From NCBI GenBank assembly GCA_943357985.1, contig CALRGR010000003.1:6496-70495 (forward strand): a stretch of 64,000 nt of DNA. The letters run 5' to 3'. Shown piece after piece: positions 34,104 through 56,970 of the stretch. The stretch's first letter is position 1. The number at the start of each line of letters is the position of its first letter. The stretch comes from Candidatus Levybacteria bacterium GW2011_GWA1_37_16 (GTDB taxonomy: Bacteria; Patescibacteriota; Microgenomatia; Levybacterales; UBA12049). The translations under genes were made by a program, and so were the position numbers. Under the pieces are notes generated by a model. It saw nothing but the letters and a program-made list of their open reading frames with translations. It was not told the origin of the DNA and searched no databases.

Positions 34104-35219
34104 TTAATTCCTTTGTCTTAGGAATGCTGGGATGTCAAAGACGTCTTCATCTTCATTTTCTTCTTGTCTTACCGGTTCTTCCTCAGAAACAGACTGCGAG
34201 GATTCTTCCGAAACCTGAGCGCTCACATTAACGCTAGGCGGCATAAAACTTCTAAGAGTTTGTCTTGCCTGGTCAAATCCGGTTGCCACAACTGTTATTT
34301 TTATCTGGTCATGCATATTCTCATCTATTGTTGCGCCAAAAATAATATTTGCATCAGGATCTGCAGCGCTTGAAATAATTTTTGCTGCCTCATCAACCTC
34401 ACTCATTGTGATATCTGGTCCGCCGGTAATATTAAATAGCACACCACGCGCTCCGTCCATAGATATTTCAAGAAGAGGTGATGCAATTGCGGTACGTGCT
34501 GCAGCCTGAGCTCTGTTTTCTCCGACTCCCGTACCTATTCCCATCAACGCACTTCCCGCATCTGTCATAATTGCCCTAACATCTGCAAAATCAACATTAA
34601 TAAGCCCCGGCATAGTAATTAAATCGGAGATTCCCTGAACACCCTGAGTCAAAACCGAGTCAGCAACCCTAAAAGCTTCAAGAAGAGAAAGCTTTCTATC
34701 AACTACGTCAAGAATTCTTTGGTTTGGAATAACAATAAGAGTATCAACTTTGTCTTTTAATTCTTCAAGACCGTCTTCTGCAGCAACCATCCTACGTGTT
34801 CCTTCAAAAGTAAAAGGTTTTGTAACAACTGCAATAGTAAGCGCTCCAACTTCTTTTGCAATCTTTGCAATTATAGGCGTTGCCCCTGTTCCAGTTCCTC
34901 CACCCATTCCTGCGGCCAAAAATACCATATCACTACCCTCCAGCATATTTTTTATTTTTTCGGCAGATTCTTCCGCCGCATTCTTTCCAATTTCAGGATC
35001 TCCTCCGGATCCTAAGCCTTTTGTTAAGTTTTCACCAATCTGAAGCTTAGTTGTTGCTTGGGAAGTAAGAAGAGCTTGAGCGTCTGTATTTACAGAAACA
35101 AAATCAACTCCCGAAATATTACCGCTTGCTATCATAGTACCAACTGCATTATTGCCGGCTCCGCCAATCCCGAAGACTCTTATTTTTGCGAAGTTTGTTG
35201 TTTGAGGTCTAATTAGCAT
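34104..35219 (-). CDS. ftsZ: Cell division GTPase FtsZ
   Basis: Tubulin signature GGGTGTG, N-terminal VFGIGGAGNNAV, and an acidic C-terminal tail. Confidence 0.95.
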   Translation of the reverse strand: MLIRPQTTNFAKIRVFGIGGAGNNAVGTMIASGNISGVDFVSVNTDAQALLTSQATTKLQIGENLTKGLGSGGDPEIGKNAAEESAEKIKNMLEGSDMVFLAAGMGGGTGTGATPIIAKIAKEVGALTIAVVTKPFTFEGTRRMVAAEDGLEELKDKVDTLIVIPNQRILDVVDRKLSLLEAFRVADSVLTQGVQGISDLITMPGLINVDFADVRAIMTDAGSALMGIGTGVGENRAQAAARTAIASPLLEISMDGARGVLFNITGGPDITMSEVDEAAKIISSAADPDANIIFGATIDENMHDQIKITVVATGFDQARQTLRSFMPPSVNVSAQVSEESSQSVSEEEPVRQEENEDEDVFDIPAFLRQRN

Positions 35220-35440: not shown

Positions 35441-36739
35441 CTAGGGTAAAAAGCTTTTGACGAGTTCTATCAGCTTTGAAAAATACTTTCCAAATTTAAT
35501 ATTCTTCATTACAGGAAAAGAAAAACCAAAAGGCAAAGAAGATGAAACCTCTAAAGTTGCTCCATACGCCACAAGTCCCACCGCAGTTGAAAAAGCAGGA
35601 TCTTGAATTTCATCTATTATTCCTTTTATATCCTGGGGTATTCCGATTCTAACCGGCATTGCCAAAACTCTTTTTGCAACATCTGCTACTCCAACTGTCT
35701 TTGCTCCTCCGCCTGTTACAACAAGTCCAGCTGGCGTTTGGCCGCCAAATTCACTTCTTTTAATTTCCATTCCCACCATTGCAAAAATTTCATTAATTCT
35801 TGGCCTTATTATTCCGTCAACCAAAGTTTTTTCGGATGCTTTACTAATGTCCTCCGGTAAATGTAATGAGCTTAAATTCAGTTCGTCCGATGGCTTTTTT
35901 TCTTTTGTATCCCCTTCTTCCTCATCGGCTTCAACTCTGAGCGCTTTTTTGGTATTAGAAAGAAAGAGCTTTATTTTTTCGGCAGATTCAAGTGAAATCC
36001 TAAGTCCAATTGCCAAGTCATTTGTAATATGACGGGCTCCGATTGCCAAGACGGATGAATAGGCAACAGACCCATCAATATAAATAGATATATCTGTGGT
36101 TCCGGCTCCAATATCAACCATTACCACTCCTAATTCTTTTTCTGTGTCGGATAAAACTGCAAGGCTTGAAGCATATCCGGAAGACACCATTCCTTCAACG
36201 TCAACGCCTACTTCGGAAAATGCCTTTTCCATATTCCTAAGCGCCATAGTGCTTGAGGAAATTATGTGAGTATCAACCTCAAGACGCACTCCAGTCATCC
36301 CAATTGGATCCTTAACTCCTTCGTGACCATCAACTATATAATTACGTGGCAAAATATGAATTATTTCACGGCTTGATGGAAGAGAGACTGCTTTCGCAGC
36401 ATCAATTACCCGCATTAAATCATTCTCGGTTATTTCTCCATGAGGCGCTGAAACTGCAACAACCCCACGGGAATTTTGCGACTCTATGTGCGCCCCACCA
36501 ACAGATGCAATAATCTTTGAAACGGAATATCCCGCCATTCTCTCTGCCGCTTCCAAGGAATTATTTATGGAAACAACTGCTTCTACTATATCTATTATTT
36601 GTCCTTTTTTAATGCCCGCAGAAGAAACCTCGGAAACACCAACAACATTGATACTTAAAGCCTCATCAATTCTGGCAATAAGAGTAACTATTTTGGAAGT
36701 ACCTATATCAATTCCAACAACTATTTTTCCTTCAGTCAT
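35441..36739 (-). CDS. ftsA: Cell division protein FtsA (actin-like ATPase)
   Basis: Sequence VGIDIGTSKI, the phosphate-2 motif DIGAGTTD, and position upstream of ftsZ. Confidence 0.9.
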   Translation of the reverse strand: MTEGKIVVGIDIGTSKIVTLIARIDEALSINVVGVSEVSSAGIKKGQIIDIVEAVVSINNSLEAAERMAGYSVSKIIASVGGAHIESQNSRGVVAVSAPHGEITENDLMRVIDAAKAVSLPSSREIIHILPRNYIVDGHEGVKDPIGMTGVRLEVDTHIISSSTMALRNMEKAFSEVGVDVEGMVSSGYASSLAVLSDTEKELGVVMVDIGAGTTDISIYIDGSVAYSSVLAIGARHITNDLAIGLRISLESAEKIKLFLSNTKKALRVEADEEEGDTKEKKPSDELNLSSLHLPEDISKASEKTLVDGIIRPRINEIFAMVGMEIKRSEFGGQTPAGLVVTGGGAKTVGVADVAKRVLAMPVRIGIPQDIKGIIDEIQDPAFSTAVGLVAYGATLEVSSSLPFGFSFPVMKNIKFGKYFSKLIELVKSFLP

Positions 36740-36744
36740 AGTTT

Positions 36745-37173
36745 TTAAAACGCAACCACGGGTTTATCAAACCTAAAATCCAGAGTCTTAAATCTCTTAC
36801 CCTCTATTGTAAGCCTAGAAAGTATAATTTGTAAAGAGCGCACCTGTGAAGAAATATCCTTTCCAGGAGAGATAACCACAATCCCTCCATCTTCAAGACT
36901 TACCATATATGAGGAATCAGTTGCCACTTCAATCTTTGATACGTTAATTTTTTCCTTTGCCAAAAGGCCTTTAATGTCCAAATCTTGACTTTTGACTCCT
37001 TTTGGAAGAGGACTAACTAAAGGATTTTTGAAAACATAAGGGGAAAAGAATATAAATACAGCCGTTAAAACAAGAGAAGATCCCAAAAGAACGAATATAA
37101 TTCCTAAGTATCTAAAATATTTTCTACTTTTTCTATTTTTTCTTTCGTGCAACATCTTCAACAACAGAGACAA
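36745..37173 (-). CDS. ftsQ: FtsQ/DivIB-like cell division protein (short; TM helix plus POTRA-like domain)
   Basis: N-terminal TM helix and a position between murG and ftsA. Confidence 0.5.
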   Translation of the reverse strand: MSLLLKMLHERKNRKSRKYFRYLGIIFVLLGSSLVLTAVFIFFSPYVFKNPLVSPLPKGVKSQDLDIKGLLAKEKINVSKIEVATDSSYMVSLEDGGIVVISPGKDISSQVRSLQIILSRLTIEGKRFKTLDFRFDKPVVAF

Positions 37174-38236
37174 TATGCGCTGCCGCTTTCTTTTCTATTA
37201 AATTTTCAGATTCAGGGCTTAGTCTGTATTTATCGATACTACTCATCATATAGTCTATTTTTGAGATAAAATTCTCAACAGACAACTCATCTTGCTCCAT
37301 TATCTCGCCCAGACCCAGTTCTTTTATAAAAAAAGCATTCTGATGTTGCTCTCCTTTTGCTGCAATAGGTAATGGAATCAAAAAGCACGGCTTTTTAAGA
37401 AAAATTAGCTCCGTTACAGTATTCATTCCCGCTCTGCCTACAACAAGTGTTGCTTTTTGAAGAACTATCCCTGCTTCTTTGCTTTCAATAAATTTTTCAA
37501 TCCTATATTTTTTTGCCAAATCCGCAGGTAGGGTTTTTTTTAGCTCCTGTAGTCTTTCAAAATCATTAAACTTTTTAGAATCTCCTGTTTGATGGATTAC
37601 GGAATATCTACCGAGCAATTTTTCAACCGATCTCTCAATTAAACTGTTTATGAAATGAGAACCCGTACTTCCTCCTGTTATGTAGATAATGGACTCGTCC
37701 GGTTTTTTGTCAGTATTTGCCGCCTCAATAATTTCTTTTCTCACAGGATTTCCTGTAACTATCACATTTTTGCCTGGAAAAAAGTCCTTGGAGCTATTCC
37801 AGGAAACGCAGATCATCTTGGCCCACATTGCAATTATTTTGTTGGAAACTCCAACTTGCAATGTCTGCTCATGAATGACAACCGGAATTTTCAAAAAATA
37901 TGCAGCAAGAGAAACAGGCAAAGATACATATCCACCAAATCCTAAAACCACATCCGGTCTTATTTTTCTAAGAATTGTTATGGATTTGCCAAAACCATAA
38001 GGAAGCTTTATTAATGAAGGGATTGTGCGGATCGTAAATTTCCTTTGAAACCTGCCACTTGGAAGATCTATGAATGGGATATTTAAAGATTTTATTGTTT
38101 GATATTCCAAAGTCGGGGACTTATCTCCCTCAAATGAAGATTTTCTGCCTATAAAGAAAACTTGTGAATCTTGCGGTAAAGCCTCTATCACACATTGAGC
38201 CGGAGAAAAATGACCACCTGTTATTACAAGTCTCAT
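37133..38236 (-). CDS. murG: Undecaprenyldiphospho-muramoylpentapeptide beta-N-acetylglucosaminyltransferase
   Basis: N-terminus MRLVITGGHFSPAQ, a GT-B fold, and GGS-G motifs. Confidence 0.85.
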   Translation of the reverse strand: MRLVITGGHFSPAQCVIEALPQDSQVFFIGRKSSFEGDKSPTLEYQTIKSLNIPFIDLPSGRFQRKFTIRTIPSLIKLPYGFGKSITILRKIRPDVVLGFGGYVSLPVSLAAYFLKIPVVIHEQTLQVGVSNKIIAMWAKMICVSWNSSKDFFPGKNVIVTGNPVRKEIIEAANTDKKPDESIIYITGGSTGSHFINSLIERSVEKLLGRYSVIHQTGDSKKFNDFERLQELKKTLPADLAKKYRIEKFIESKEAGIVLQKATLVVGRAGMNTVTELIFLKKPCFLIPLPIAAKGEQHQNAFFIKELGLGEIMEQDELSVENFISKIDYMMSSIDKYRLSPESENLIEKKAAAHIVSVVEDVARKKK

Positions 38237-38252
38237 ACTATGATTCTAGCAC

Positions 38253-39323
38253 CTAACTGTGGCTTTGTCTTGATATGTTTAATAAAATGCCAATAGCACA
38301 CAACTCTATGATAAGAGCCGAGCCTCCGTAAGATATGAAAGGAAGAGGAATTCCCGTAAGAGGAAGAAGCATGGTCTGCGCGCCAAGATTTATTATCATC
38401 TGGATTGCCAAAAAAGTTGTAATTCCTGCTGCTAAAAGCCTTCCAAAATTATCCGGCGCACGACTAGCAATTCTAAATCCTCTCCAAACAACGACTGCAA
38501 AAATACAAATAAGAATTGTTGCTCCAACAAATCCAAGCTCCTCCGCAATTATTGCAAATATAGAATCCGTTGTATTTTCCGGAAGATATGCATATTTTTG
38601 TAAAGAGTTTCCAAGACCCAAACCAAAAACTCCGCCATTTCCAAGTGAGATTAAAATCTGCTTTACGTGATAGGAAGAATTTTGAACATCTTGATTAGGA
38701 TTTAAGAAGGTTACCAACCTTTCAGCTCTATAAGGAGATGTTTTTATAAGTATTAGCCCCAAAGCTCCCAAAACAGGAATTAAAGAAAGAAGATAAAGCA
38801 TATTTCCTCCTGATAGAAAATATATCGCCATGGCTTCCCCCATTATTACAATTGCAGTTCCCATATCCGGCTGCATCATAATAAGTGCGACCAAAAGACC
38901 CATTAGAAGCACAAACGGGACAAATCTTCCCTTTTCTTTTCTTGAAAACCAAGCAGCCAAATATATAGCTAAAGATAGCTTTACAAATTCAGTCGGTTGC
39001 AGTAAGAATACTTTTAGATCAATCCATCGGCTTGCTCCAAGCAAATGAACACCAATCCCGGGTATAAAAACCATAATAAGAAGTACAATTGAAGTTATCA
39101 TCAAAGGTAATGAAAGATTATAAAATCTGTGATAGTCAAAAAATGAGAAAAACGTTAGAGCCCCAAATCCCAAAATGGCCCATAAAAACTGTCCTTTTAA
39201 ATAGTGATATTTATCCGCAAAATCTCTAAATGCAACAAAAGAAGATGCGTCATAAATCATAAGGAGACCAAAGAAAGTAAGAAATATGATGGAGAGTATT
39301 AAAGTAATGTCCAAACGCTTCAT
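38253..39323 (-). CDS. ftsW: SEDS-family peptidoglycan glycosyltransferase, likely FtsW
   Basis: Ten TM helices, PFISYGGS motif, and position between mraY and murG. Confidence 0.75.
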   Translation of the reverse strand: MKRLDITLILSIIFLTFFGLLMIYDASSFVAFRDFADKYHYLKGQFLWAILGFGALTFFSFFDYHRFYNLSLPLMITSIVLLIMVFIPGIGVHLLGASRWIDLKVFLLQPTEFVKLSLAIYLAAWFSRKEKGRFVPFVLLMGLLVALIMMQPDMGTAIVIMGEAMAIYFLSGGNMLYLLSLIPVLGALGLILIKTSPYRAERLVTFLNPNQDVQNSSYHVKQILISLGNGGVFGLGLGNSLQKYAYLPENTTDSIFAIIAEELGFVGATILICIFAVVVWRGFRIASRAPDNFGRLLAAGITTFLAIQMIINLGAQTMLLPLTGIPLPFISYGGSALIIELCAIGILLNISRQSHS

Positions 39324-39327
39324 GAGG

Positions 39328-40335
39328 TCATTTTATAAGAGCTATGTAAAGACCCATTATGGCAAATAAAAATCCCAAAAGCCAGGATCGCATGACAATC
39401 TTTGGCTCTTCCCAACCTCGTTTCTGAAGATAAAGATGAAGCGGTGCAACCGGAAAAATTTTTCGTCCTAGATATCTCTTTCCAAGAAGCTGAATTAAAG
39501 AAGAACCAACTTCTAAAATAAGAACTCCTCCAATAAATCCAATTGCTATTATTTTTCCTGTTAAAAGACCTATAACGGCAATGCTTGCTCCCAATGCAAG
39601 AGAACCTACATCCCCGAGCCAAATTCTTGCAGGATAAATATTAAAGTACAAAAATGCAGCAACGCTTCCCATAAGAATGGCTATAAAAATTCCGAGTGAT
39701 TTATCATATTGATTTGCGGAAATTGTTAAAAAAGCACCAAGCGCAATAAGCAGAAGACCACTTGCCTGTCCATCAAGACCGTCGGCAATATTAAAAGCGT
39801 TTGCAAAAGAAACAATAATAAAAGCGGCAAGAGGAATAAAGAAAATGCCAATAACTGCAAGCCCAAAGCCTTTTATAAAAATAAAATCATACCCAAGCTG
39901 GGAATAAAGAATAAAGGCAATAATAAAAGCCAAAATCCATTGAATCGCAAATTTATACCTAAATCTAAGACCAAAGAATCCTTCTTTTTTGTCGCTTAGT
40001 TTTTTAAAATCATCATATAAACCAAGAGCGCCAAAGCCTAAAAGAGTAAAGAGAACTACAAATATCTGCCAAAGATTAAAATCCACGTTTAAAAGACCGT
40101 AAGCCCAAAGAGTAAGTATAGAAACAACAATTATTATAAGAATTCCGCCTCCAAACGGAGTGCCTGTTTTCCAAGCATTAAATTTATCAAAATAGGGAGT
40201 TGGTTTATTAAAGAGGTCGCGGGTAACTTGCTTCTGACGCCTTAATTTTATTTTATATAAAAAATCAATAAACGGAATAAGCAAAATACCGGTTATAAAA
40301 GCAGACAAAAGTGTAAGTCCCAAAAATTGCGCCAT
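39328..40335 (-). CDS. mraY: Phospho-N-acetylmuramoyl-pentapeptide transferase
   Basis: Motifs NAFNIADGLDG and WLGDVGSLALG, with ten TM helices. Confidence 0.9.
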   Translation of the reverse strand: MAQFLGLTLLSAFITGILLIPFIDFLYKIKLRRQKQVTRDLFNKPTPYFDKFNAWKTGTPFGGGILIIIVVSILTLWAYGLLNVDFNLWQIFVVLFTLLGFGALGLYDDFKKLSDKKEGFFGLRFRYKFAIQWILAFIIAFILYSQLGYDFIFIKGFGLAVIGIFFIPLAAFIIVSFANAFNIADGLDGQASGLLLIALGAFLTISANQYDKSLGIFIAILMGSVAAFLYFNIYPARIWLGDVGSLALGASIAVIGLLTGKIIAIGFIGGVLILEVGSSLIQLLGKRYLGRKIFPVAPLHLYLQKRGWEEPKIVMRSWLLGFLFAIMGLYIALIK

Positions 40336-40498
40336 AAAAGGGTATTATACTCCTAAAGATGAGACTGCAGCAAGCTTACTTCTGCTTTTTTTGTTTCTTT
40401 TTCTCTTTCTTGGGTTTGGAAAACCTTTCAGCCATGTATTTATTTAATACCAATTTTGTCCTTATTGCAACAACCAAATTTATGCTATTATAGTTTCT

Positions 40499-41035
40499 AT
40501 GGAAGAGAAATGTCCAAAATGCGGTTCGGCCTTGTCTCCTATTACGGAGACAGCAACAGGCCGCAAGCTTCAAAGGTGCTCTAAGGGCTCTTGGAATCCC
40601 GAAACAAAACAGAATGAAGGCTGTGACTATGTATTATGGATTCAGGCAGAAGATGAAAAGCTAGATGAAAAATGCCCCAAGTGCGGAAATCCACTGGTCA
40701 TGGCGCAAACACGCTTTGGAAAGAAAATGAAAAAGTGTTCAACCAATGTCTGGAATAAAGATACAAAAAAAGCAGAGGGCTGTGACTTTATAGAATGGAT
40801 TAACGGCACAACAAAAGAACTTGATGAAGATTGTCCAGAATGCGGAAAGAAGCTTGTTCTTTATACAACCTCAACAGGAAAAAAGATGAAAAAGTGTTCA
40901 ACCAGTGGCTGGGACAGGGAAAAAAAGGTTACAACGGGCTGCACATATGTCCAATGGCTTAAACCAAGTGAGTATCAATCAAAAGACGAACCAAACGGAG
41001 AAGAGTTTTTACCCCCTGAATCCCAAGCAAACTAG
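40499..41035 (+). CDS. Stand-alone protein built from three tandem topoisomerase-type C4 zinc-ribbon modules
   Basis: Three ~58-aa repeats. Each carries CP(K/E)CG, about 15 intervening residues, then KC and GC (e.g. EKCPKCGNPLVMAQTRFGKKMKKCSTNVWNKDTKKAEGCDFIEW). This resembles the C-terminal zinc ribbons of topoisomerase I and YrdD-type proteins. Confidence 0.55.
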   Translation: MEEKCPKCGSALSPITETATGRKLQRCSKGSWNPETKQNEGCDYVLWIQAEDEKLDEKCPKCGNPLVMAQTRFGKKMKKCSTNVWNKDTKKAEGCDFIEWINGTTKELDEDCPECGKKLVLYTTSTGKKMKKCSTSGWDREKKVTTGCTYVQWLKPSEYQSKDEPNGEEFLPPESQAN

Positions 41036-41730
41036 AAAGGGATGTCTGAAGTTGTTGACTCGATACTTTCAAAGGATTTTCTATAAATGCAAAGCCTGCA
41101 CGTTTCAGACGGTTTTGGCAAATCACCATTTAGAACTTTAGAAATCTCATTAACGAATTTTAAAAATCCATCCATATCTTCCTCTATTGGATGCCATTTA
41201 GGAGATGTAGTAAATACAAATTTTCCGTCTTTATGCTCAATTGCGTCCGGTGAAACGCTAACTAGTCCGATTCTTGAAACTTTAATAGGCTTACCTTCTG
41301 CGGGATTTTCCAAAGCATATTTATAAGCATGCAGTTGACTTGAAAACTTTTTGATTTGCTCTTCATCTGGCTTTGTTATTTTAAAATCTATAACCGAGTA
41401 TGTACCATCTGCAAGTTTAGTTAAAACATCAAAACGTCCACTTATATAACAGTCTTCTGAGCCTTTTATTGGCTGGGATTTTAAAAACCCTTCCTGAATT
41501 TCAATTATTCCCTCTGGCAAATCCGGATGAATATCTTTTAAGCTTTTTCCCATAACAGAATTTTGTAAAAGACTATTCATGTGAGTAAAAATTGCAGGGA
41601 AAGCGCCGGAATGAGGAGGAATACCAAGTTTTACTTTTTGATAGAAACAAAACTTACAATCCTCCCAAAGATACTTGAAGTCGGAAGGGGATAATTTATA
41701 TTGCTTCTGTGCTTGCTCCATGAAAACCAA
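41032..41730 (-). CDS. Cas4/RecB-like PD-(D/E)XK nuclease with flanking Cys pairs
   Basis: Motif II GRFDVL, motif III IDFKITK (D-x-K), and a QLHAYKYAL (Q-x3-Y) motif. Cys pairs lie at the N-terminus (CKFC) and C-terminus (CRLC). No CRISPR array is present. Confidence 0.6.
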   Translation of the reverse strand: MVFMEQAQKQYKLSPSDFKYLWEDCKFCFYQKVKLGIPPHSGAFPAIFTHMNSLLQNSVMGKSLKDIHPDLPEGIIEIQEGFLKSQPIKGSEDCYISGRFDVLTKLADGTYSVIDFKITKPDEEQIKKFSSQLHAYKYALENPAEGKPIKVSRIGLVSVSPDAIEHKDGKFVFTTSPKWHPIEEDMDGFLKFVNEISKVLNGDLPKPSETCRLCIYRKSFESIESTTSDIPF

Positions 41731-41749
41731 TTATACCACTACTCTATCT

Positions 41750-42880
41750 CTAAAGGGGCGGCTCAAGTTCTAGGGTTTTAATTTCCGGGAGTGACTTACC
41801 TATTATTCCCTGCAAATCTCCATACATTCCATGAGTACTGTCTAAAACTTTTCTTATTTCTTTTTCCTGCCTTGCCCATTTGGAATTAAACCATCTTTTT
41901 TCTCTTTCTAATTCGTCCTGCAAATTTCCAAAACCCTCAACAACTGCCTCAACCCTATGCTTAAATTCAGTACCCGTTAAGTATTTATACAGAACCTCCA
42001 TCTTTTCATTCTTTCCCTCTCCATTTGACCTTTCATGATTTAGACTTACCAAGTTATACCGCAAAGAAAGCGCAAGTGGAACTACAAACTTCCATGTAGT
42101 TATCCAAACTCCATCTTTGTAAGTAAAAGAATCTAAGAATTCCGGCTTATTTATTGTGACAAGGATTGCCAAATCTGACTTTTTAGCTCTTTGATCTTCT
42201 TTTAATTTTGCAATCCAGCCATTTTGCCACTGAGCATTTTTAGATTCCCAAAGAATTGTCCCGCAACTTCTTCCCAATTTATCTGTCACTTCATGAACAA
42301 TATCCGCTCCCCTTTCCCCTTTTTTAACTTCAAGAATATTATCCTGTGGAAATTCACTTTTTAGAATTCTTTCGAGTTCTAACTCCATTACTTCTCCTTG
42401 TGTTTGCTGAGAGCCTTGTTCCATTTTGGTTTTAAGCTCTTCAAGTTGTTTTAGGGTATCTGTAAGTTTTTTGTCCTTTTCCAAATCTTTGAATTGATGT
42501 TCATCTTCCGACTGCTTTCTGACTTCTTTTCTAATCTTCTCCTCCTCATCCATTATTTTTTGCTTCATTTCCAATTCCCTCTCTTCATCTTTGCGTCTTA
42601 AGGCTCTCATTTCTTCAAGAAGTTTGTCTAATTTTTCCGTGAGGCTTTTATTTCTATCTTTTTCTTCTGTGTTTTCTTTTTTTAAAGTTTCGAGGGATTG
42701 CTCAAATTCTTTTCCGACTTTCTTTTTAGCGACTTCTTCTGCTGCCAATTTTGTATCTTCGAGTTCTTTTTTGTGCTTTATTTCCAGCGTGAGCAAAACT
42801 TGTTCTTCTATCTGATGAGTTAAAGCTTCCGATACTTCAATTTCTGCCCCACACTTTTTACACTTTATAACATTATTCAT
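41750..42880 (-). CDS. DUF2130/RmuC-like protein: N-terminal CxxC knuckle, long charged coiled coil, C-terminal PD-(D/E)XK-like nuclease domain
   Basis: N-terminal MNNVIKCKKCGAEIEV, then a ~200-aa E/K-rich coiled coil. The C-terminal region carries GERGADIV and ILWESKN (E-x-K) motifs. It is 19 bp upstream of, and co-oriented with, the Cas4-like gene. Confidence 0.5.
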   Translation of the reverse strand: MNNVIKCKKCGAEIEVSEALTHQIEEQVLLTLEIKHKKELEDTKLAAEEVAKKKVGKEFEQSLETLKKENTEEKDRNKSLTEKLDKLLEEMRALRRKDEERELEMKQKIMDEEEKIRKEVRKQSEDEHQFKDLEKDKKLTDTLKQLEELKTKMEQGSQQTQGEVMELELERILKSEFPQDNILEVKKGERGADIVHEVTDKLGRSCGTILWESKNAQWQNGWIAKLKEDQRAKKSDLAILVTINKPEFLDSFTYKDGVWITTWKFVVPLALSLRYNLVSLNHERSNGEGKNEKMEVLYKYLTGTEFKHRVEAVVEGFGNLQDELEREKRWFNSKWARQEKEIRKVLDSTHGMYGDLQGIIGKSLPEIKTLELEPPL

Positions 42881-43305: not shown

Positions 43306-43755
43306 ATGATACACGAAGCCCCCAAAAGAACATCAGAGCAAATTGCTGCGGGTTTAGTTGCTCAAGCACTAACAGCTCAACAAGAAGGCCTAGAAAAGGA
43401 AATTCCTGTATATCTAAAAGTTTCTATAGACTCACCCTCACTCGCTGCCAGATTTAAAGTCCCTGATATTTCAGGCAATCCTATATTGGGAGACATGCTC
43501 GATAGATTGTTAGTTGTAAATGACGATTTCTCAGTGTCATACGTGACTGGTTTTAATTCTTACGATGGCCATAAATATGAGCACTGGATAACTCCTTCCA
43601 AAAGATATCCAGGATTATTTACTATTACTGAATTCGCGATGAAAGGTAGACAAAGAGTAGCCGAAAGAGTTGGTATTTTAGTCAGCGGGACTAATTTAAT
43701 AGAATTTCAAAATTGGTCACATTTTTTCTACAACGTTATTCAGAAGGAAGCCTAA
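43306..43755 (+). CDS. Hypothetical protein (149 aa, soluble, no recognisable motifs)
   Basis: ORF with a plausible upstream promoter. It is the last gene of the accessory segment before glmS. Confidence 0.4.
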   Translation: MIHEAPKRTSEQIAAGLVAQALTAQQEGLEKEIPVYLKVSIDSPSLAARFKVPDISGNPILGDMLDRLLVVNDDFSVSYVTGFNSYDGHKYEHWITPSKRYPGLFTITEFAMKGRQRVAERVGILVSGTNLIEFQNWSHFFYNVIQKEA

Positions 43756-43758
43756 GTT

Positions 43759-45522
43759 TTATTTCACAGTAACGCTTTTGGCGAGGTTACGGGGCTTGTC
43801 CGGATCTAAATTAAGGTCGACTGCCATATAGTAAGCAAGTAGCTGAATTGCAACAATTTGCGCAATATAAGATGCTTCCTTTATATCTTTTACTTGCAAG
43901 AAATAATCAAACACAGGCTGATTTTTGTCTGCAATTCCAATTATTATTCCCCCTCTACTTTTAATTTCAATTGCGTTTGAAATTATTGACTCAAAGCTAT
44001 CATCATTTGGGGCAAATACAATAACAGGCGTGCCTTTGGAAATAAGAGCAATTGTCCCGTGTTTTAATTCCCCACCTGCCAGGCCTTCTGTTGGCACATA
44101 GCTTACTTCTTTTATCTTCAAAGCTGCCTCTAGTGCCGATGGATAAGAAACTCCTCTGCCGATTACATAGATATTTGACGCAATCGAAAGAAACTTTGCA
44201 ACTTGCTTGATTTGGGCCGAGTTTTTTTTCTCAAGTATTCGATCAATCTCATCTGCAGCCAGAAGCAATAGCTTTTTCGCGTCCGCAGTTTTTTCTACCA
44301 TTGCAAAAACTAACATTAGAAGAACGGAAAGTTTTGCAATGTATGCTTTTGTTGATGCAACTGCTTTTTCAGGTCCTGCGTTTAGAAGAATTTTAAAGTC
44401 TGCCATTCTGTAAATTGAAGATCCTAAAACATTTGTTATGGCAACAATCTTACTTCCTCTTACCTTTGCCCTATTTAATGGCTCTATAACATCAATAGTC
44501 TCTCCTGACTGAGACAGAGCAATAACTAAGCTTTCTTTATTTAGAAAATGTTCAAGGTAATTAAACTCGGATGCAACCGCGGTATTAACATGCGTTTCTG
44601 CAATTTTTGAAAAAAGGTATGTGCCAGTTAATCCTGCATGAAAAGCAGTTCCGGCTCCAATAAAGTATGTTCCTCTGGCTTTTTTTATAAGTTTTGAAAG
44701 AGCATTTATTTCATCTTCATAGTTTTCTGCAATATTTCTTATAACTAGCGGCTGCTCATAAATTTCTTTTATCATAAAATGAGGAAATTTACCCATACTT
44801 GATAGTTCAAATTTCCAAGTTACAGTTTCTGGCACAACTTCAAGCTGCTTACCAGAGGGGACCGAAATTAGCTCTATATCCTTACCTAAAATAACCATTT
44901 CATAATCTTTTAGGAAAATTACTTTTTTTGTTTTTTCTATAAAACTTGAAATATCGGAGGCCAGATAAAATTCGTCCTTTCCAAGACCTACAACCAAAGG
45001 AGAACCGTTTTTGACAGCTATAATTTCGCTTGAAGGAGCATATGCAATAACAATTGCATTAAGTCCTTTTAATTTATTGAAAGATTTTCTAACTGAAGTT
45101 GCAAATCCGCTGCTGCCCTTAAGATTTTCTTCAATAAGATGAGGAATAACTTCCGTATCGGTTTCTGAGACAAACTTATGTCCTTTTTTGATAAGTTCTT
45201 CTTTAAGCTGTTCGAAGTTTTCAACAATACCGTTGTGAACTACTGCAATTTCCTTGCGGCAATCAAGATGAGGATGTGAATTTGCAACAGTTACGCCACC
45301 GTGAGTTGCCCAGCGGGTATGACCAATTGCTAAATTGCTTTTTGGCAAATTCACACTTGCCCCTCCAATTTTACCAACGTGTTTATCAACTGCAAGATTT
45401 TTGCCTTTTTTAACTGCAATTCCCCAAGAATCGTATCCTCTATATTCAAGAATTTTTAAACCTTCGAACGCTATATTAGCAGCGTCATTTTTATTACCGA
45501 TATAAGCAAATATTCCACACAT
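43759..45522 (-). CDS. glmS: Glutamine--fructose-6-phosphate aminotransferase
   Basis: N-terminal nucleophile MCGIFAYIG, two SIS domains, and the C-terminal ...VK. Confidence 0.95.
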   Translation of the reverse strand: MCGIFAYIGNKNDAANIAFEGLKILEYRGYDSWGIAVKKGKNLAVDKHVGKIGGASVNLPKSNLAIGHTRWATHGGVTVANSHPHLDCRKEIAVVHNGIVENFEQLKEELIKKGHKFVSETDTEVIPHLIEENLKGSSGFATSVRKSFNKLKGLNAIVIAYAPSSEIIAVKNGSPLVVGLGKDEFYLASDISSFIEKTKKVIFLKDYEMVILGKDIELISVPSGKQLEVVPETVTWKFELSSMGKFPHFMIKEIYEQPLVIRNIAENYEDEINALSKLIKKARGTYFIGAGTAFHAGLTGTYLFSKIAETHVNTAVASEFNYLEHFLNKESLVIALSQSGETIDVIEPLNRAKVRGSKIVAITNVLGSSIYRMADFKILLNAGPEKAVASTKAYIAKLSVLLMLVFAMVEKTADAKKLLLLAADEIDRILEKKNSAQIKQVAKFLSIASNIYVIGRGVSYPSALEAALKIKEVSYVPTEGLAGGELKHGTIALISKGTPVIVFAPNDDSFESIISNAIEIKSRGGIIIGIADKNQPVFDYFLQVKDIKEASYIAQIVAIQLLAYYMAVDLNLDPDKPRNLAKSVTVK

Positions 45523-46001: not shown

Positions 46002-47258
46002 TTATTTCTTCTCTATAATCTCCTGAAATTTCGCGTAGTAAGTAACATCATCTTCAATGTTTTTAAAAACACTGGTAGACGGACCAATTGTGACGTTATT
46101 ACCAATTATGACACCAGGCATTATAGAAACTTTTATTCCAATTTTTACATTGTTTCCAATTATCGCGCCCAGGCTGATAAGGCCAGTGTCTACTTTTGAA
46201 CCTTTTACTACTGCCTGAATATTTTTCCTGTCTATTTTTCTGTTTGCGGTTGTAAAGGCAGAACCAATTTTACAACTTGAACCAACAATTGAATCTCCTA
46301 CAAATCCTGAATGAATGCTCGTCCCTTTCATAAAAAGGCTGTTTTTAATTTCTGTAAACGCTCCAACCGATACTCCCTCTTCTAAATCTGACTCATTTCT
46401 AATAAGAGAATTTGTTCCAATATATACATCTTTACCAATGTAAGCTGGTCCCTTAATTTTTGCTCCTTCAAGGATTTGCGCTCCGCTTTCAATAATTACA
46501 TTATCATCAATCTCAGCGCTCTTTGAAATTTTTGCGCTTTCGTCTATCCTTCCCACAATATCTTTCATCAGTAAATTTTTTGTTGCAAGCAAATCCCAAG
46601 GGTACTTTAAAGTTGATGTTTCAAATTCTATCTGTCCAACATCAATTGAATTTTCCTTTACGTAAAGCTCAAGTACCTCTTGTTCAAAATTAAATTCGGA
46701 CATTTTTACTTGTCTTACCGTCTCAATAATATCCGTTGATAATAAAAATGCATTAACTAAACACAGATCCGATGGTTCCTCTCCCTTCTTAGGCTTTTCA
46801 ACTATGCGTACGAGCTTTCCGTCTTTAACAACAACTACTCCATAATCCCAAGGATTTTCTCTTTTATTTACAAGGATTACGCCCTTGGACCCACCTTTTC
46901 GAGCTTTTAACAATTCGTAAACAAGTTTTTTACTGGTAACGTGATTTCCACCAATGAGAATAAAATCGCCATCGAGGAATTTCTCTGCATTAAGAAGAAC
47001 CTCTCCCATTCCCAATGCTTCTTTTTGCTCAATGTAGTTTATGAAGAGGCCGGAGGCCGAACCATCACCAAAATAATTCTTAATTACTCCGTCTTCGCTT
47101 ACTCTTAAAATTATGTCTTTTATTCCTGCTTCTTTTAATCCCTCAAGCGTATATTCAAGAATTGGCTTTCCCATAATTTTACTCATGGTTTTATGAGCCA
47201 CTCTTGAGTATGGATAAAATCTGCTTGAATAACCGCCTGCTAAAACAACTGCTTTCAT
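46002..47258 (-). CDS. glmU: Sugar-1-phosphate nucleotidyltransferase fused to a left-handed beta-helix acetyltransferase (GlmU-like)
   Basis: Nucleotidyltransferase motif MKAVVLAGGYSSRF and C-terminal hexapeptide repeats (IGNNVKIGIKVSIMPGVIIGNNVTIG). Start set at MKAVVLAGG to avoid overlap with murA. Confidence 0.65.
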   Translation of the reverse strand: MKAVVLAGGYSSRFYPYSRVAHKTMSKIMGKPILEYTLEGLKEAGIKDIILRVSEDGVIKNYFGDGSASGLFINYIEQKEALGMGEVLLNAEKFLDGDFILIGGNHVTSKKLVYELLKARKGGSKGVILVNKRENPWDYGVVVVKDGKLVRIVEKPKKGEEPSDLCLVNAFLLSTDIIETVRQVKMSEFNFEQEVLELYVKENSIDVGQIEFETSTLKYPWDLLATKNLLMKDIVGRIDESAKISKSAEIDDNVIIESGAQILEGAKIKGPAYIGKDVYIGTNSLIRNESDLEEGVSVGAFTEIKNSLFMKGTSIHSGFVGDSIVGSSCKIGSAFTTANRKIDRKNIQAVVKGSKVDTGLISLGAIIGNNVKIGIKVSIMPGVIIGNNVTIGPSTSVFKNIEDDVTYYAKFQEIIEKK

Positions 47259-47259
47259 A

Positions 47260-48588
47260 TTATTCTTTAATCCTTTTAATATCTGCTCCCAAACTCTTAA
47301 GTCTTTTTTCAAAATTTTCATAACCGCGGTCCAAATGTTCAACCCCAAAAACTACACTTTCGCCCTTTGCAGAAAGTGCAGCCAAAACTAAAGTTGCGCC
47401 TGCTCTTAAATCTGATATTTCTACAACCGCATTATGAAGATTTGTGGGTCCCGTAATTTTAGCAGCATGCTTAAACTCCGCTTTATTGTCAGAAAGGTTA
47501 AAATTGTAAACTTCTTGTGGATTTTTAACTTCTGGATTAAAAAGCTCTATCTTTGCTCCCATTTTTAAAAGCTGATTAACATAGTTAAATCTACTTTCAT
47601 AAACTGTTTCATGAATTACTGACTCTCCTCTGGCTTTAGTCATAAGAACTGCCCATGGACCCTGCCAGTCAGTCATGAAGCCGGGATAAAAAGATGTTGT
47701 AGCATCTGTTGCCTTAAGATCATCCTTATAGAAAAATCTTAAATCTTTTCCTTTTTCCTCAAATTGTCCTCCAGCCTGCTTGAATTTTTCTAAAAATTCT
47801 ACAAGCTCCTGTTTCTTTACGTCTTTTACCGTTATATCTCCCTCTGTTATAATCGCCGCAATTGCAAAGGTGACTATTTCATTTCTGTCAGGCGCGATTG
47901 AAAATCTTGTACCATGAAGTTTTTCTACACCTTCAACTACAATTTTTCTTTTGGAAATTCTTTTAACTCTTGCTCCCATTCTATTTAGAAATTCAATTAA
48001 TTCATCAACTTCCGGTTCCTGCGCTGCATTATCTAAAACCGTCTTTCCTTTTGCCAAAACTGCTGCCATAAGAAGAGTCTCAGTGCCCGTGTGCGTGTTT
48101 TTCTCGAATCTATAAGCGGCCCCCTTAAGCCCGTTGCTTGCTTTAATATGAAAGAATCCATCTTTACTGTTATATGTTGCGTTAACTCCCATTTTTTTAA
48201 GACCTAAAATAGTTCTGTCAATTGGCCTGGCTCCAATTCTGCAACCTCCTGGGTTTGGAATTATCGCGCTATTTGTACGTGCTAAAAGCGGAGCAACAAA
48301 CATAGCGGAAGTTCTTACTTCCGCAGCAGCTTGCAACGCAATTTTTTCCTTTTTGAATTCTTCCATTTGAATATAAGCGGTATGATCTTGAATTCTCACC
48401 TTTCCACCCAACTCTTTAACGATATCTATCATTACCTGAAAATCCGAAATGTGAGGAATATTATCAATAATGACTTCTTCTGCTGTAAGACATGATGCCA
48501 CCACAACTTTAAGAGCCACATTTTTGGCACCTGAGATAACTACGCTTCCTTTAAGTTTTTTTCCGCCTTTTATAACAAATTTGTCCAT
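47260..48588 (-). CDS. murA: UDP-N-acetylglucosamine 1-carboxyvinyltransferase
   Basis: N-terminus MDKFVIKGGKKLKGSVVISGAKNVALK and the active-site Cys region (GGCRIG). Confidence 0.9.
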   Translation of the reverse strand: MDKFVIKGGKKLKGSVVISGAKNVALKVVVASCLTAEEVIIDNIPHISDFQVMIDIVKELGGKVRIQDHTAYIQMEEFKKEKIALQAAAEVRTSAMFVAPLLARTNSAIIPNPGGCRIGARPIDRTILGLKKMGVNATYNSKDGFFHIKASNGLKGAAYRFEKNTHTGTETLLMAAVLAKGKTVLDNAAQEPEVDELIEFLNRMGARVKRISKRKIVVEGVEKLHGTRFSIAPDRNEIVTFAIAAIITEGDITVKDVKKQELVEFLEKFKQAGGQFEEKGKDLRFFYKDDLKATDATTSFYPGFMTDWQGPWAVLMTKARGESVIHETVYESRFNYVNQLLKMGAKIELFNPEVKNPQEVYNFNLSDNKAEFKHAAKITGPTNLHNAVVEISDLRAGATLVLAALSAKGESVVFGVEHLDRGYENFEKRLKSLGADIKRIKE

Positions 48589-52574: not shown

Positions 52575-53618
52575 ATGAGCCCGCTTGATGAAAATCAACT
52601 TCAGATTGAGATTAAAAAAGAGGGACTGCGCCATATTACGGATGAAATACCCGGCTTTATGAGGCAAAAACTTGGTATAAACTTCACTTATTATGACGAG
52701 GATCTCAAAAGAATAAAAGATAAAGTCGTAATTAGCCGGATTGAGAGCTTAGCAATTCCGCCAGCCTGGAAAAAAGTCTGGATTTGTGCTTCAGAAAACG
52801 GATATCTTCAAGCAACAGGCACTGATGACAAAAGACGTAAACAGTATATTTATCATCCGGAATGGGTAAAAGCAACTCAAACAAGCAAATTTGAAAGACT
52901 GACGGATTTTGGCCTCAGCCTTCCAATAATCCGCTCGAAAATCGATTATGACCTGCACCAAAAAGACATGGATAAGAAAAGAATCCTAGCTACTGTCGTT
53001 TGGTTGCTTGAGAAAACTTTTATCCGCATTGGAAATGAAGAATACGCAAGAAATAATGAAAGCTTCGGGCTAACAACTTTAAGAAACCGTCACGCAAAAG
53101 TAAGAGGAGACCAAATTTCATTTAAATTCATAGGGAAAAGCGGTATTGAGAATGTAATCGAAATATCAAACCCAACAATTGCCAAAACAATCAGAAAATG
53201 TATTGAACTTCCGGGCTACGAGCTTTTTCAATTTATAGATGATAGCGGAGAGCGTCATGTAATTGATTCTGCGGATGTTAACGAATTTTTGAAAGAAATA
53301 ACTAAAAATGAATTTACTACAAAAGATTTTAGAACTTGGGGAGCAACCAATTTATCAGCAAGACACCTTTATAAATTAGGAGGCGCGGAGAGTGAGAAGA
53401 CGATCAAGCAAAATATTATGGACACCATCAAGGAAGTCGCAAGTCAGCTTAACAATACCGTATCGGTTTGTAGAAATTATTACATTCATCCGCAAGTTTT
53501 GAAGAGCTACGTCAAAAAGACTCTAGTTCCCCACTTTGCAGGTTTTGAAAAATCCAGAAAATCAATAAAAGGACTCTCCTGGAACGAAACCGCCCTAATC
53601 AAACTCCTACAAAATTAG
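52575..53618 (+). CDS. Type IB DNA topoisomerase (bacterial/poxvirus-type TopIB)
   Basis: Conserved blocks GLTTLRNRH, KDFRTWGAT and the catalytic Tyr context SVCRNYYIHP. Confidence 0.8.
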   Translation: MSPLDENQLQIEIKKEGLRHITDEIPGFMRQKLGINFTYYDEDLKRIKDKVVISRIESLAIPPAWKKVWICASENGYLQATGTDDKRRKQYIYHPEWVKATQTSKFERLTDFGLSLPIIRSKIDYDLHQKDMDKKRILATVVWLLEKTFIRIGNEEYARNNESFGLTTLRNRHAKVRGDQISFKFIGKSGIENVIEISNPTIAKTIRKCIELPGYELFQFIDDSGERHVIDSADVNEFLKEITKNEFTTKDFRTWGATNLSARHLYKLGGAESEKTIKQNIMDTIKEVASQLNNTVSVCRNYYIHPQVLKSYVKKTLVPHFAGFEKSRKSIKGLSWNETALIKLLQN

Positions 53619-53642: not shown

Positions 53643-54344
53643 ATGGGAACAATGAGAGATTTTAATAGAGGCGGTAACTCGAGACCAAGACGAAGCTATG
53701 ATAATAGAGGATCTTCTGGTGGAAACGAAGAAAGACAAACATTTAAAGCAATATGCGCAGATTGTGGCCGCGACTGTGACCTTCCATTTGAACCCCGTGG
53801 CAACAGACCAGTATATTGCAGAGATTGTTTCAAAAAGCATACACCGGAAGGCTCAAGCGGAGATAGATATGAATCAAGAGGAGATTCCAGAGGGGGTCCA
53901 CGTGAAGATTCAAGGCGATCAGGTGGCGATAGACCAATGTTTAGCGCAGTATGCGACAACTGCGGCAAAACTTGCCAGCTTCCCTTTGAACCAAGACAGG
54001 GAAAAGAAGTTTTCTGCAGTAGATGTTTTGAAGATAAAGAAAAAGGAATAGACATGACGCAAAGAAAAAGCAATAGCAATGGCACGCAAGCACAATCACA
54101 ACCAAACCTTCAAATGGACGCAATAAATGCAAAGCTTGATAAAATATTAAATCTTTTATCCAACACAAAAGCATTAAAAAATGACGAGAAAGCTTCCAAA
54201 GTAGTAGAAGATGAGATAGAACAACTAGTAAAAACAATTAAAGCTGAAAAATCAATCAAACCTAAAAAGAAAGTCAAAGATCCTGAGCAAAGCCGAAGCG
54301 TAGCAGCAGAAACAGAAATTCCAATAGAATCCCCAACGGAATAG
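53643..54344 (+). CDS. RGG/Arg-Gly-rich protein with two repeated CxxC...CxxC zinc-ribbon modules and a lysine-rich C-terminal coiled coil
   Basis: Duplicated module: CADCGRDCDLPFEPRGNRPVYCRDCF and CDNCGKTCQLPFEPRQGKEVFCSRCF. The region is locally GC-rich because of GGN/CGN codons, which produces many spurious overlapping ORFs on both strands. Confidence 0.5.
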   Translation: MGTMRDFNRGGNSRPRRSYDNRGSSGGNEERQTFKAICADCGRDCDLPFEPRGNRPVYCRDCFKKHTPEGSSGDRYESRGDSRGGPREDSRRSGGDRPMFSAVCDNCGKTCQLPFEPRQGKEVFCSRCFEDKEKGIDMTQRKSNSNGTQAQSQPNLQMDAINAKLDKILNLLSNTKALKNDEKASKVVEDEIEQLVKTIKAEKSIKPKKKVKDPEQSRSVAAETEIPIESPTE

Positions 54345-55287: not shown

Positions 55288-56970
55288 TTATTCCGTGGGG
55301 GGAATTCCGTAATACGTCAATATGTCTTTGGCGATGGAGAAAAAGACCGGGGCGGCAGTGTCTGCACCGTATATGCTAGTCGTGGGCCTATCAATAATTA
55401 CAAGCATGACGAACTTTGGATTGTCCGCGGGAGCAAAACCAATAAAAGAAGCGATTGTTTGGTTTGGGTCATAATGTCCCGCAACCGGAATTGACGCTGT
55501 TCCTGTTTTACCTGCAATTCTATAACCTTTTAGCCTTGCCCACTGCGCCTCTCCCTTATTTACGGCATTTACCATAATCTCCGTCATTATTTTTGAAGTT
55601 TTTTCCGAAATTGTTCTTGTGACTACTTTTGACGGAATTTTTACTTTGTCCCCTTCTGCTGTATGAATTTGCGCCACAATGTGCGGTTCCATCCTAAGCC
55701 CTCCATTTGCAATTGAACCTATAGCGGCAAGAAGCTGTATGGGAGTAATTGAGATTCCCTGACCAAAACTTACCGTTGCCAAATCTACTTCATACCAATT
55801 ATCTTTTTCCTTAATTGGCTGTGCCACTTCTCCCTGCAAATCAATCCCCGTTGTTTGCCCTATGCCAAATTTTTCTAAATGCGATAGCATGCGATTTAGT
55901 CCGAGTTTCTTCCCAACAAAAACCATTCCTGTATTATCCGAATGAATTATTGTATCAATCATACTAATATTGGGCTTATACTTATCATTCCAGGTTTTGA
56001 TGGTATATCCGCCTATTGAAACAGGTTTATCACAGATATTACATTTAGTCTCTGGCGTTACCAAACCTTCATCCAAGGCAGCTGACATAATAAGAGGCTT
56101 AAAAGTAGAACCCGGTTCATAAGCATCATTAATGAATGGATTTCTATACTCTTTTTCGGAATAGTCCTGGAACTTTTGCGGATCAAAAGATGGAGTTGCT
56201 ACCATTGCAAGAATTTGCCCTGTTGCTGGATCCATAACTGCAACCATTCCCCCGCTTGCGCCGTAAGTATCAATTGCTTTTTTCAACTTGTTCTCTGCCG
56301 CATACTGAATAGCTCTGTCTATTGATAAGACAAGACTATCTCCATCAATTGTTTTTTCATCCCCGCTATTTAGTTTTGCAACTATTGGTCTTCCTAATGC
56401 ATCCTGAATAACGCTTGCAAGCCCTTCCTTGCCTCTCAAAAGCCTGTCGTAATGCCCTTCAAGCCCAAAATAACCAGTATCTACATCCGCATCATTCTTA
56501 CCCACAAAACCCAAAAGATGGGCCGCAGTTGATGCTTCCGAATAAAGCCTTGTGTAGTTTTCTTCAAACCCAATACCGGGGAGTTTTAATTGCTCAATTT
56601 GCTGTTTTGTTGCAAGGCCTACCTTTGGTGGAAGTGCCACCCAAAATTTATCCAGATTTAAAAGCGCGGATACAGAAGCCTCCTCAGTTTTTAGAATCGG
56701 AGCCAAAACCAAAGCTGTTAATTTTTTATCCTTAACCACTTTTGGGTTTGCAAAAACAGTATAGATAAGTCTATTGGCAACTATAGGAAATCCGTCTGAT
56801 GTATAGATTTGGCCACGCGCCGGCTGAAGTTTTATTATTCTTCCGTATTGATTTTCCCCAAGAAGAGAAAGCTCCGATGCTTTAACAACCTGCCAGTAAA
56901 AAAGACGGGAAATAACGACAAAGAAAAGAAAAATTAGAAAACAAAAGGTAAACCTGTAACGCCAGGTCAT
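55288..56970 (-). CDS. ftsI: Penicillin-binding protein 2 / FtsI (class B transpeptidase)
   Basis: N-terminal TM helix, a PBP dimerisation domain, and the SxxK (STFK), SxN (SDN) and KTG (KTGT) motifs. Confidence 0.9.
   Translation of the reverse strand: MTWRYRFTFCFLIFLFFVVISRLFYWQVVKASELSLLGENQYGRIIKLQPARGQIYTSDGFPIVANRLIYTVFANPKVVKDKKLTALVLAPILKTEEASVSALLNLDKFWVALPPKVGLATKQQIEQLKLPGIGFEENYTRLYSEASTAAHLLGFVGKNDADVDTGYFGLEGHYDRLLRGKEGLASVIQDALGRPIVAKLNSGDEKTIDGDSLVLSIDRAIQYAAENKLKKAIDTYGASGGMVAVMDPATGQILAMVATPSFDPQKFQDYSEKEYRNPFINDAYEPGSTFKPLIMSAALDEGLVTPETKCNICDKPVSIGGYTIKTWNDKYKPNISMIDTIIHSDNTGMVFVGKKLGLNRMLSHLEKFGIGQTTGIDLQGEVAQPIKEKDNWYEVDLATVSFGQGISITPIQLLAAIGSIANGGLRMEPHIVAQIHTAEGDKVKIPSKVVTRTISEKTSKIMTEIMVNAVNKGEAQWARLKGYRIAGKTGTASIPVAGHYDPNQTIASFIGFAPADNPKFVMLVIIDRPTTSIYGADTAAPVFFSIAKDILTYYGIPPTE

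Follow-up and report, generated by a model that had tools for sequence, protein, structure and literature searches.

A stand-alone protein of three tandem topoisomerase I-type zinc ribbons in Microgenomates bacteria

The triple-ribbon gene, its product and its promoter

A stretch of 64,000 nucleotides from Candidatus Levybacteria bacterium GW2011_GWA1_37_16 (contig CALRGR010000003.1, positions 6,496 to 70,495; the whole stretch is referred to here as the window) was found to carry a gene for a small protein with three zinc ribbons in tandem. The three ribbons had been proposed in an initial annotation, and were confirmed by the list of open reading frames (ORFs) and by an alignment of the repeats. 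The gene, the parts of its product and the candidate promoter elements lie as follows.

40465-40470, plus strand: weak -35-like element TTGCAA
40483..40491, plus strand: extended -10-like element TGcTATTAT, 7 nucleotides upstream of the ATG, read from the sequence by consensus scan
40499..41035, plus strand: coding sequence of the triple zinc-ribbon protein, ATG start, 178 amino acids, stop codon included, from the ORF list
40511..40639, plus strand: core of zinc ribbon 1, C5 to W47, CPKC ... RC-S-x3-W-x8-GC-x-Y-x2-W
40673..40798, plus strand: core of zinc ribbon 2, C59 to W100, CPKC ... FGKKMKKC-S-x3-W-x8-GC-x-F-x2-W
40832..40957, plus strand: core of zinc ribbon 3, C112 to W153, CPEC ... GKKMKKC-S-x3-W-x8-GC-x-Y-x2-W
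40958..41032, plus strand: acidic C-terminal tail, residues 154-178, net charge -4
40997-41020, plus strand: tail motif G167-E-E-F-L-P-P-E174, the near-invariant GEEFLPPEP that follows a variable linker

The repeats were 38-45% identical in pairwise comparison and shared 16 invariant columns, C-P-x-C-G ... G-x-K ... C-S-x3-W ... G-C ... W being common to all three. Their consensus reads C-P-x-C-G, 17-18 residues, [KR]-C-S-x3-W-x8-G-C-x-[YF]-x2-W. Of the geometry first described, the CPxCG and GC elements were borne out, the latter in all three repeats, but not a period of about 58 residues, which is 53-54 (C5 to C59 to C112), nor a spacing of about 15. The KC expected at the third cysteine was present in repeats 2 and 3 only, as repeat 1 has an arginine before this cysteine. 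In an alignment of 25 homologues all 12 cysteines and all six tryptophans were invariant (in ribbon 1 these are C5, C8, C27, C42, W32 and W47), as were the lysine clusters and the Trp and Tyr/Phe positions. The invariance of the cysteines and tryptophans indicates that the repeat pattern is selected and is no chance feature. The ribbon cores carry net charges of +2, +5 and +6 and are joined by short, acidic linkers (-3 and -3).

The tail was predicted to be disordered in an AlphaFold model of the whole protein, with predicted local distance difference test scores (pLDDT) below 50 at residues 160-178 and of 69.6 for the model as a whole. Within its motif G167, P172 and P173 were invariant among the 25 homologues, and E169, F170 and L171 were conserved in at least 90%; 2-15 variable residues followed the motif. 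Among distant representatives it was also found in fragments and in a two-ribbon variant of 128 residues (P0123), where the tail reads GEEYLPPSE. A C-terminal tip like that of the bacterial single-stranded DNA (ssDNA)-binding protein SSB was considered and rejected for the ribbon protein, as the GEEFLPPEP motif is not terminal. Membership of the SSB family was likewise rejected: the OB fold and the terminal I/L-P-F tip are both absent, and the model consists entirely of small zinc-ribbon sheets.

No Shine-Dalgarno sequence was found in the window between the -10-like element and the ATG. The same layout was seen in the relatives of the gene, for which the 80 best species-representative loci were surveyed. 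A TANNNT hexamer ending 4-9 nucleotides before the ATG was present in 76 of 81 genome loci (the 80 species and the window) and in 74 of 76 metagenome loci, or about 96% of the 157 loci overall. It was often TGn-extended, and the spacer was mostly 6-8 nucleotides, with counts of 30, 23 and 19 at spacers of 6, 7 and 8 compared with about 2 per offset elsewhere. Shine-Dalgarno-like tetramers occurred in none of the 81 genome loci and in one of the 76 metagenome loci. At 56 of 79 loci the upstream neighbour was encoded on the opposite strand, as was the downstream neighbour at 44 of 74. The -10 element and the missing Shine-Dalgarno sequence indicate that the gene nearly always heads its own transcription unit, and its mRNA is probably leaderless, with a predicted start site at the A of the ATG. 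Such a promoter does not appear to be special to the triple-ribbon gene. Among 240 neighbouring genes at the head of a unit, which served as a control, only 19% had a Shine-Dalgarno-like tetramer and about 40% had a -10-like hexamer 6-8 nucleotides before the ATG, so that leaderless-type starts appear to be a habit of the lineage and common in these genomes; leaderless translation is thus suggested to be widespread in these Microgenomates. The mraY gene of the window has a consensus TATAAT 8 nucleotides upstream of its ATG (40336-40354, minus strand).

Ribbon type, relatives and distribution

The assignment of the repeats to the ribbon type of topoisomerase I and YrdD, made in the initial annotation, held up in profile, sequence and structure comparisons. 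The Pfam profile PF01396 (Zn_ribbon_Top1) matched the whole protein in three stretches (E=8.2e-10), scoring 38.8 bits where the gathering cut-off is 32, a pass that is the sum of three partial matches, the best of them from repeat 2. Each module had the four cysteines of two knuckles (C-x2-C ... C-xn-C), and all 12 were present. BLASTP against Escherichia coli YrdD, with the sequence taken from NC_000913, gave E=3e-7 and 32% identity, and the sole large gap was an insertion of 9-10 residues between the third and fourth cysteines. When the PDB sequences were searched with phmmer, meaningful scores were obtained for E. coli TopA only (4RUL and 9GDA; E=1e-3), and the best four Foldseek matches of the whole model in the PDB were all E. 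coli TopA, with probabilities of 0.90-0.99. These comparisons show the protein to consist of three tandem four-cysteine modules, all homologues of the ribbons that bacterial topoisomerase I carries at its C-terminus. It stands alone, as had been proposed, and contains no catalytic domain.

When individual ribbons were aligned, those of the window were found to belong to an extended subtype. Canonical ribbons have a second knuckle of the form C-x4-[YF]P-x-C; here, nine extra residues with an invariant tryptophan stand between Cys3 and Cys4, and this insertion was modelled as an extra hairpin. A further tryptophan lies four residues past Cys4, and the third strand is rich in lysine (GKKMKKC). 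The ending GC-x-[YF]-x2-W resembled the GRF motif, which we take to be C-x2-C ... GR-x-F ... C-x-F-x-W (as in eukaryotic TOP3-alpha, APE2 and NEIL3), and a GRF-type zinc finger was therefore considered. It was dropped, since Pfam gave no GRF family for the three repeats scanned alone, nor among the 25 best families for the whole protein, and no GRF structure was among the 50 listed Foldseek matches of either the whole-protein model or a model of repeat 2.

Two known systems can be compared directly. The ribbon domains D5-D7 of E. coli TopA (4RUL; PF01396) belong to the same fold family by sequence and by Foldseek; in TopA, and presumably in the window protein too, two knuckles on a small antiparallel sheet hold the zinc, and the TopA ribbons bind ssDNA as beads on a string. 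They differ in being in cis with a type IA catalytic core, which the window protein lacks, and the window ribbons have Met or Leu in place of the beta-3 aromatic residue and the extra hairpin between Cys3 and Cys4. TopA ribbons bind ssDNA chiefly by pi-stacking, and the stacking aromatics in E. coli include F616 and Y728 (PMC4678816). YrdD of E. coli, whose binding of ssDNA is reported to be zinc-dependent (PMC4678816), is the closer parallel in architecture, being likewise a stand-alone protein of about 180 residues made only of tandem TopA-type four-cysteine ribbons, and directly alignable. It has, however, four canonical ribbons with the C-x4-YP-x-C second knuckle, has neither the nine-residue Trp hairpin nor the GEEFLPPEP tail, and keeps an aromatic residue at beta-3 (FL/FI). 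Its gene adjoins smg and smf/dprA in E. coli. The window protein is far more strongly conserved and lineage-specific. The protein is of an already known, stand-alone COG0551/YrdD-type kind, and what distinguishes it is the ribbon subtype and the tail. The domain call was right, the architecture was known and public annotation was already in place: members are named 'topoisomerase DNA-binding C4 zinc finger domain-containing protein' at NCBI and 'ssDNA-binding Zn-finger/Zn-ribbon topoisomerase 1' in IMG. A literature search combining Patescibacteria, topoisomerase and zinc ribbon returned nothing.

When 1.84 billion representatives from clustering at 50% identity were searched exhaustively, 252 matches were obtained. 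Beside the window protein, P0121 (64% identity) was the sole full-length representative, which shows the three-ribbon family to be very tight. A motif scan detected at least one extended ribbon in 101 of 150 representatives. In P0152, from a metagenome-assembled genome (MAG) of a Mycoplasma sp., and in P0145 it stands at the C-terminus of a genuine TopA, confirmed by Toprim and Topoisom_bac matches; P0240 was taken as a TopA with an extended ribbon from our own reading of its sequence. These three share CS-x3-W-x8-GC-x-[YF]-x2-W and KK[MF]KKC with the window repeats, to which their ribbons are 34-49% identical, but they carry one or two ribbons, fused in P0152 and P0145 to the Toprim and Topoisom_bac domains, and have no GEEFLPPEP tail. 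P0145 and P0240 were also seen to be rich in tryptophan where other TopA have glycine (IWRPSTY versus IGRPSTY), which suggests organisms that read UGA as glycine, translated with a table that reads it as tryptophan. The other TopA-length representatives P0228, P0253, P0257 and P0233 had canonical ribbons or belonged to other lineages, and P0233 looks Topo III-like by eye.

Outside TopA, a single extended ribbon followed ERF (1e-29), Rad52_Rad22, Erf-like PHROG, phrog_11717 or Rho_N domains. In phage-type annealing proteins of the Erf/Rad52 type (P0168, P0172 and relatives) the same subtype is succeeded by an acidic aromatic-proline tail, EEEDYPFPEEEL, comparable to GEEFLPPEP here; in the Rad52-type fusions this tail follows the single ribbon. 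These proteins differ from the window protein in that one ribbon is appended to a recombinase or phrog_11717 domain. No relative of the triple-ribbon protein was found in IMG/VR viral contigs, and a viral origin of the gene was rejected on this ground. An unrelated stand-alone array of three extended ribbons was noted in P0197 (235 residues), in which the second knuckle reads G-T-C and the N-terminus is of low complexity.

Clustering at 90% identity gave 2108 homologous clusters, the 120 best listed being 71-82% identical over nearly the full length. Relatives were present in at least 502 species-representative genomes, and at least 502 further relatives were found in JGI metagenome contigs; those examined were 68-86% identical. 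The 80 best species genomes were mostly Levy-, Gottesman-, Collier-, Roizman-, Shapiro-, Woese- and Curtissbacteria, and the best match was a Levyibacteriota MAG (84% identity). The gene is thus a real, small and strongly conserved gene of the Microgenomates, within the candidate phyla radiation. Horizontal transfer was considered as the cause of the high identity and set aside, because the identities to the window protein overlap between lineages (Levybacteria 69-84%, Gottesmanbacteria 71-76%) and roughly one column in three is invariant in the 25-homologue alignment; constraint appears the simpler reading. The gene was also carried, at 70-86% identity, by many species-representative MAGs titled 'uncultured Gammaproteobacteria' or 'Pseudomonadales bacterium' (L015, L017, L020, L025, L027 and others), labels that are probably wrong. 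L015 had the same mraY neighbour as the window.

Candidate functions

We favour, with some reserve, the reading of the protein as a YrdD-like, stand-alone binder of single-stranded nucleic acid, most likely ssDNA, that is specific to Patescibacteria of the Microgenomates type. As a ligand ssDNA is favoured because the extended ribbon is fused to TopA and to two unrelated ssDNA-annealing families. Each module would bind one Zn(II), and by analogy with TopA D5-D7 and YrdD the three ribbons may lie along a short single-stranded nucleic acid, gripping it by aromatic stacking and by contacts between lysines and phosphates. The acidic tail might recruit a partner protein, or might fold back on the basic ribbons in an autoinhibitory manner. 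Transcribed alone from a leaderless mRNA, the gene would serve a general role in genome maintenance or a role coupled to transcription. The interest that remains lies in a lineage-specific, unusually constrained three-ribbon protein whose ribbon subtype is only half recognised by PF01396, in its conserved acidic tail motif, and in the recurrence of the module in both TopA and phage annealing proteins.

Several results weigh against this reading. In each repeat PF01396 recognised no more than the N-terminal half, corresponding to positions 1-20 of the 39 in the profile, and repeats 1, 2 and 3 taken alone scored 15.6, 26.5 and 21.4 bits, all under the cut-off of 32. Confidence in the models was moderate only, with pLDDT of 70-76. 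Modelled by itself with AlphaFold, repeat 2 formed six short strands (pLDDT 75.6). This model had no significant Foldseek match in the PDB, and its best probabilities were for the zinc ribbons of the RNA polymerase subunits Rpb9/C11 as much as for TopA. Where E. coli TopA has the base-stacking aromatic of strand beta-3 (F616, Y728), the window repeats have Met or Leu (GKKMKKC, GRKLQRC), so that the mode of binding, and even a preference for ssDNA over double-stranded DNA (dsDNA) or RNA, may differ; with a lysine-rich strand in addition, dsDNA or RNA could still be the ligand. Each repeat has further invariant aromatics, two Trp and one Tyr/Phe, which might take over from the lost residue.

An unlikely alternative is that the protein is a detached topoisomerase subunit, that is, the ssDNA-binding module of TopA working in trans alongside a TopA that has no ribbons, or alongside topoisomerase IB (TopIB). 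TopA enzymes of other lineages carry the same subtype in cis (43-49% identity), and some bacterial TopA have no COG0551 region at all (PMC6300522). A gene for TopIB was found near the ribbon gene at four other loci, and 12 kb away in the window.

L031:4645-5685: TopIB, directly upstream of the ribbon gene on the same strand
L033:4839-5864: TopIB, directly upstream on the same strand
L113:1-192: TopIB, directly upstream on the same strand
L175:16388-17359: TopIB, 6 kb downstream

L031 and L033 probably represent one lineage, as their upstream regions are near-identical. The TopIB neighbours are a weak lead to a topoisomerase connection: adjacency was limited to three of 160 loci, and the ribbon gene keeps its own promoter even there. 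TopA itself was not found near the ribbon gene in the window, in 89 genome loci or in 80 metagenome loci; about two would be expected by chance in the roughly 1.6 Mb of DNA flanking 160 loci. E. coli, moreover, has both a full TopA and YrdD, so that a paralogue need not mean a split enzyme. A broader version, in which the TopA ribbon array was detached as a separately transcribed, near-invariant trans subunit of a ribbon-less TopA or TopIB, or became an SSB-like hub that recruits partners through GEEFLPPEP, is rather improbable. If a trans subunit or an alternative ssDNA-binding hub of this kind did exist, it would bear on how ssDNA is handled in the reduced genomes of the candidate phyla radiation.

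We also give little credence to a role on RNA or on the transcription or translation machinery instead of DNA, with the protein as a small basic zinc-ribbon factor associated with RNA polymerase, the ribosome or RNA. Very high conservation is typical of core machinery, the canonical base-stacking aromatic is missing, and the single-repeat model resembles the Rpb9/C11 ribbons, although these fold matches were statistically non-significant. The ribbons of E. coli TopA contact RNA polymerase (PMC4678816), a contact for which the PDB entries 9GDA-9GDH, present among the Foldseek matches, are also cited. The HflX GTPase was the commonest neighbour of the ribbon gene (13 of 80 loci), but in the inspected cases it lay on the opposite strand and is therefore not co-transcribed with it. 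The fusions, too, argue for DNA: they are to TopA, to ssDNA-annealing proteins and to one Rho_N domain, and none is to an RNA-related enzyme.

A protein that binds no nucleic acid, in which the four-cysteine modules serve to store or buffer zinc, to sense redox state or purely as a scaffold for other proteins, would fit the 12 cysteines in 178 residues and the binding of iron by YrdD, as given in the title of a reference cited in PMC4678816; this is very unlikely, as both the fusions to TopA, Erf and Rad52 and the Lys and Trp residues that are invariant at the surface point to nucleic acid.

Surroundings of the gene and the adjoining nuclease

In the window the triple-ribbon gene is surrounded by a cluster of cell-division and cell-wall genes. 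In the list below, genes given without strand were read from the translation and from the Pfam labels of a same-species locus (L091).

34104-35219, minus strand: ftsZ (Pfam)
35441-36739: ftsA
36745-37173: ftsQ
37133-38236: murG
38253-39323: ftsW
39328-40335: mraY
41032..41730, minus strand: Cas4-like PD-(D/E)XK nuclease (Pfam PF12705, 4.5e-9)
41750-42880, minus strand: DUF2130 (Pfam, 9e-58)
43759-45522: glmS
46002-47348, minus strand: GlmU-like gene (Pfam)
52575-53618, plus strand: bacterial TopIB (PF01028 at 2e-37, plus PF21338)
53643-54344, plus strand: neighbour of TopIB with two zf_Tbcl_2 treble-clef fingers (PF23477 at 3e-31)
55288-56970, minus strand: ftsI (Pfam)
57301-58203, minus strand: mraW (Pfam)

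The ribbon gene converges on the nuclease gene with an overlap of 4 nucleotides, their stop codons sharing CTAG (41032-41035). This overlap had been noted in the initial annotation and is real; the proposal built on it, that the ribbon protein binds ssDNA as an adaptor or regulator serving specifically the adjacent pair of PD-(D/E)XK nuclease and DUF2130, did not survive a census of gene neighbourhoods. ORFs were called at the 80 species loci, the neighbours were clustered, and PD-(D/E)XK genes were counted by iterative search. No neighbour family was conserved across these loci. In frequency, HflX (13 of 80 loci) was followed by

FKBP: 11 of 80 loci
TspO: 11 of 80 loci
ABC transporter: 10 of 80 loci
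PDDEXK_1: 10 of 80 loci
GIY-YIG: 9 of 80 loci
Cyclophilin: 9 of 80 loci

and mraY was a neighbour at two. With the iterative search, a PD-(D/E)XK gene was detected within 6 kb at 13 of the 80 loci, which makes this one of the commoner families. It was adjacent, however, at only two (L022, position -1; L066, position +1), the genes fell into three nuclease subfamilies, and seven of the 13 loci formed one syntenic block of Gottesmanbacteria. DUF2130 lay within 6 kb at six loci. In the reverse direction, neither the ribbon gene nor DUF2130 was found within 4 kb of any of five orthologues of the window nuclease, all on long contigs (P0278, 84%; P0301, 77%; P0305, 72%; P0320, 71%; P0357, 64%).

The arrangement of the window was kept on same-species contigs only (L091), and public contigs, the longest of 131,692 bases, carried an identical copy of its nuclease. 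The 4-nucleotide convergent overlap was seen with other partners as well, namely a gene with a rhodanese domain (L022) and DUF2130 (L029 and L035). Convergent orientation and a promoter of its own rule out co-transcription of the ribbon gene with the nuclease. No operon or conserved pairing of the two was observed, the family being widespread without adjacent nucleases, and ribbon and nuclease genes may at most have a loose tendency to share variable neighbourhoods. The adaptor idea is largely refuted by the census and hardly credible; the gene is solitary, of a housekeeping type, and no partner of the neighbouring nuclease.

The TopIB gene, which had been described as standing beside a second repeated-zinc-ribbon protein, was indeed present, but the neighbour carries treble-clef zf_Tbcl_2 fingers and no Top1-type ribbon. 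The two genes stand on the opposite strand inside the cell-wall and division cluster, downstream of ftsI. A zf_Tbcl_2 gene was also found near a nuclease orthologue in L092. Between DUF2130 and glmS, an ORF of 149 residues (43306-43755, plus strand) had no Pfam or NCBIfam match; the same ORF is also among the genes called on L091, a contig of the same species.

At the Collierbacteria locus L004/L022 (JACPES010000003.1; 375-5890) a stretch resembling a defence island lies upstream of the ribbon gene. It comprises a helix-turn-helix gene, HNH, a Dcm-type methylase, Vsr, LexA and a CBASS pair (CD-NTase and Cap15), and also holds a PDDEXK_1/Cas4-like gene of 291 residues.

The C-terminal tip of bacterial SSB has the motif DDDIPF. 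The nuclease of the window ends in SDIPF, with DIPF encoded at 41035-41046 (minus strand). We know of no nuclease family with such a mimic of the SSB tail, and nothing specific on a nuclease of this kind was found in the literature. The tip is conserved in the nuclease family: among 120 homologues, 50 ended in IPF, 24 in LPF and about 10 in another x-PF, usually with acidic residues before it.

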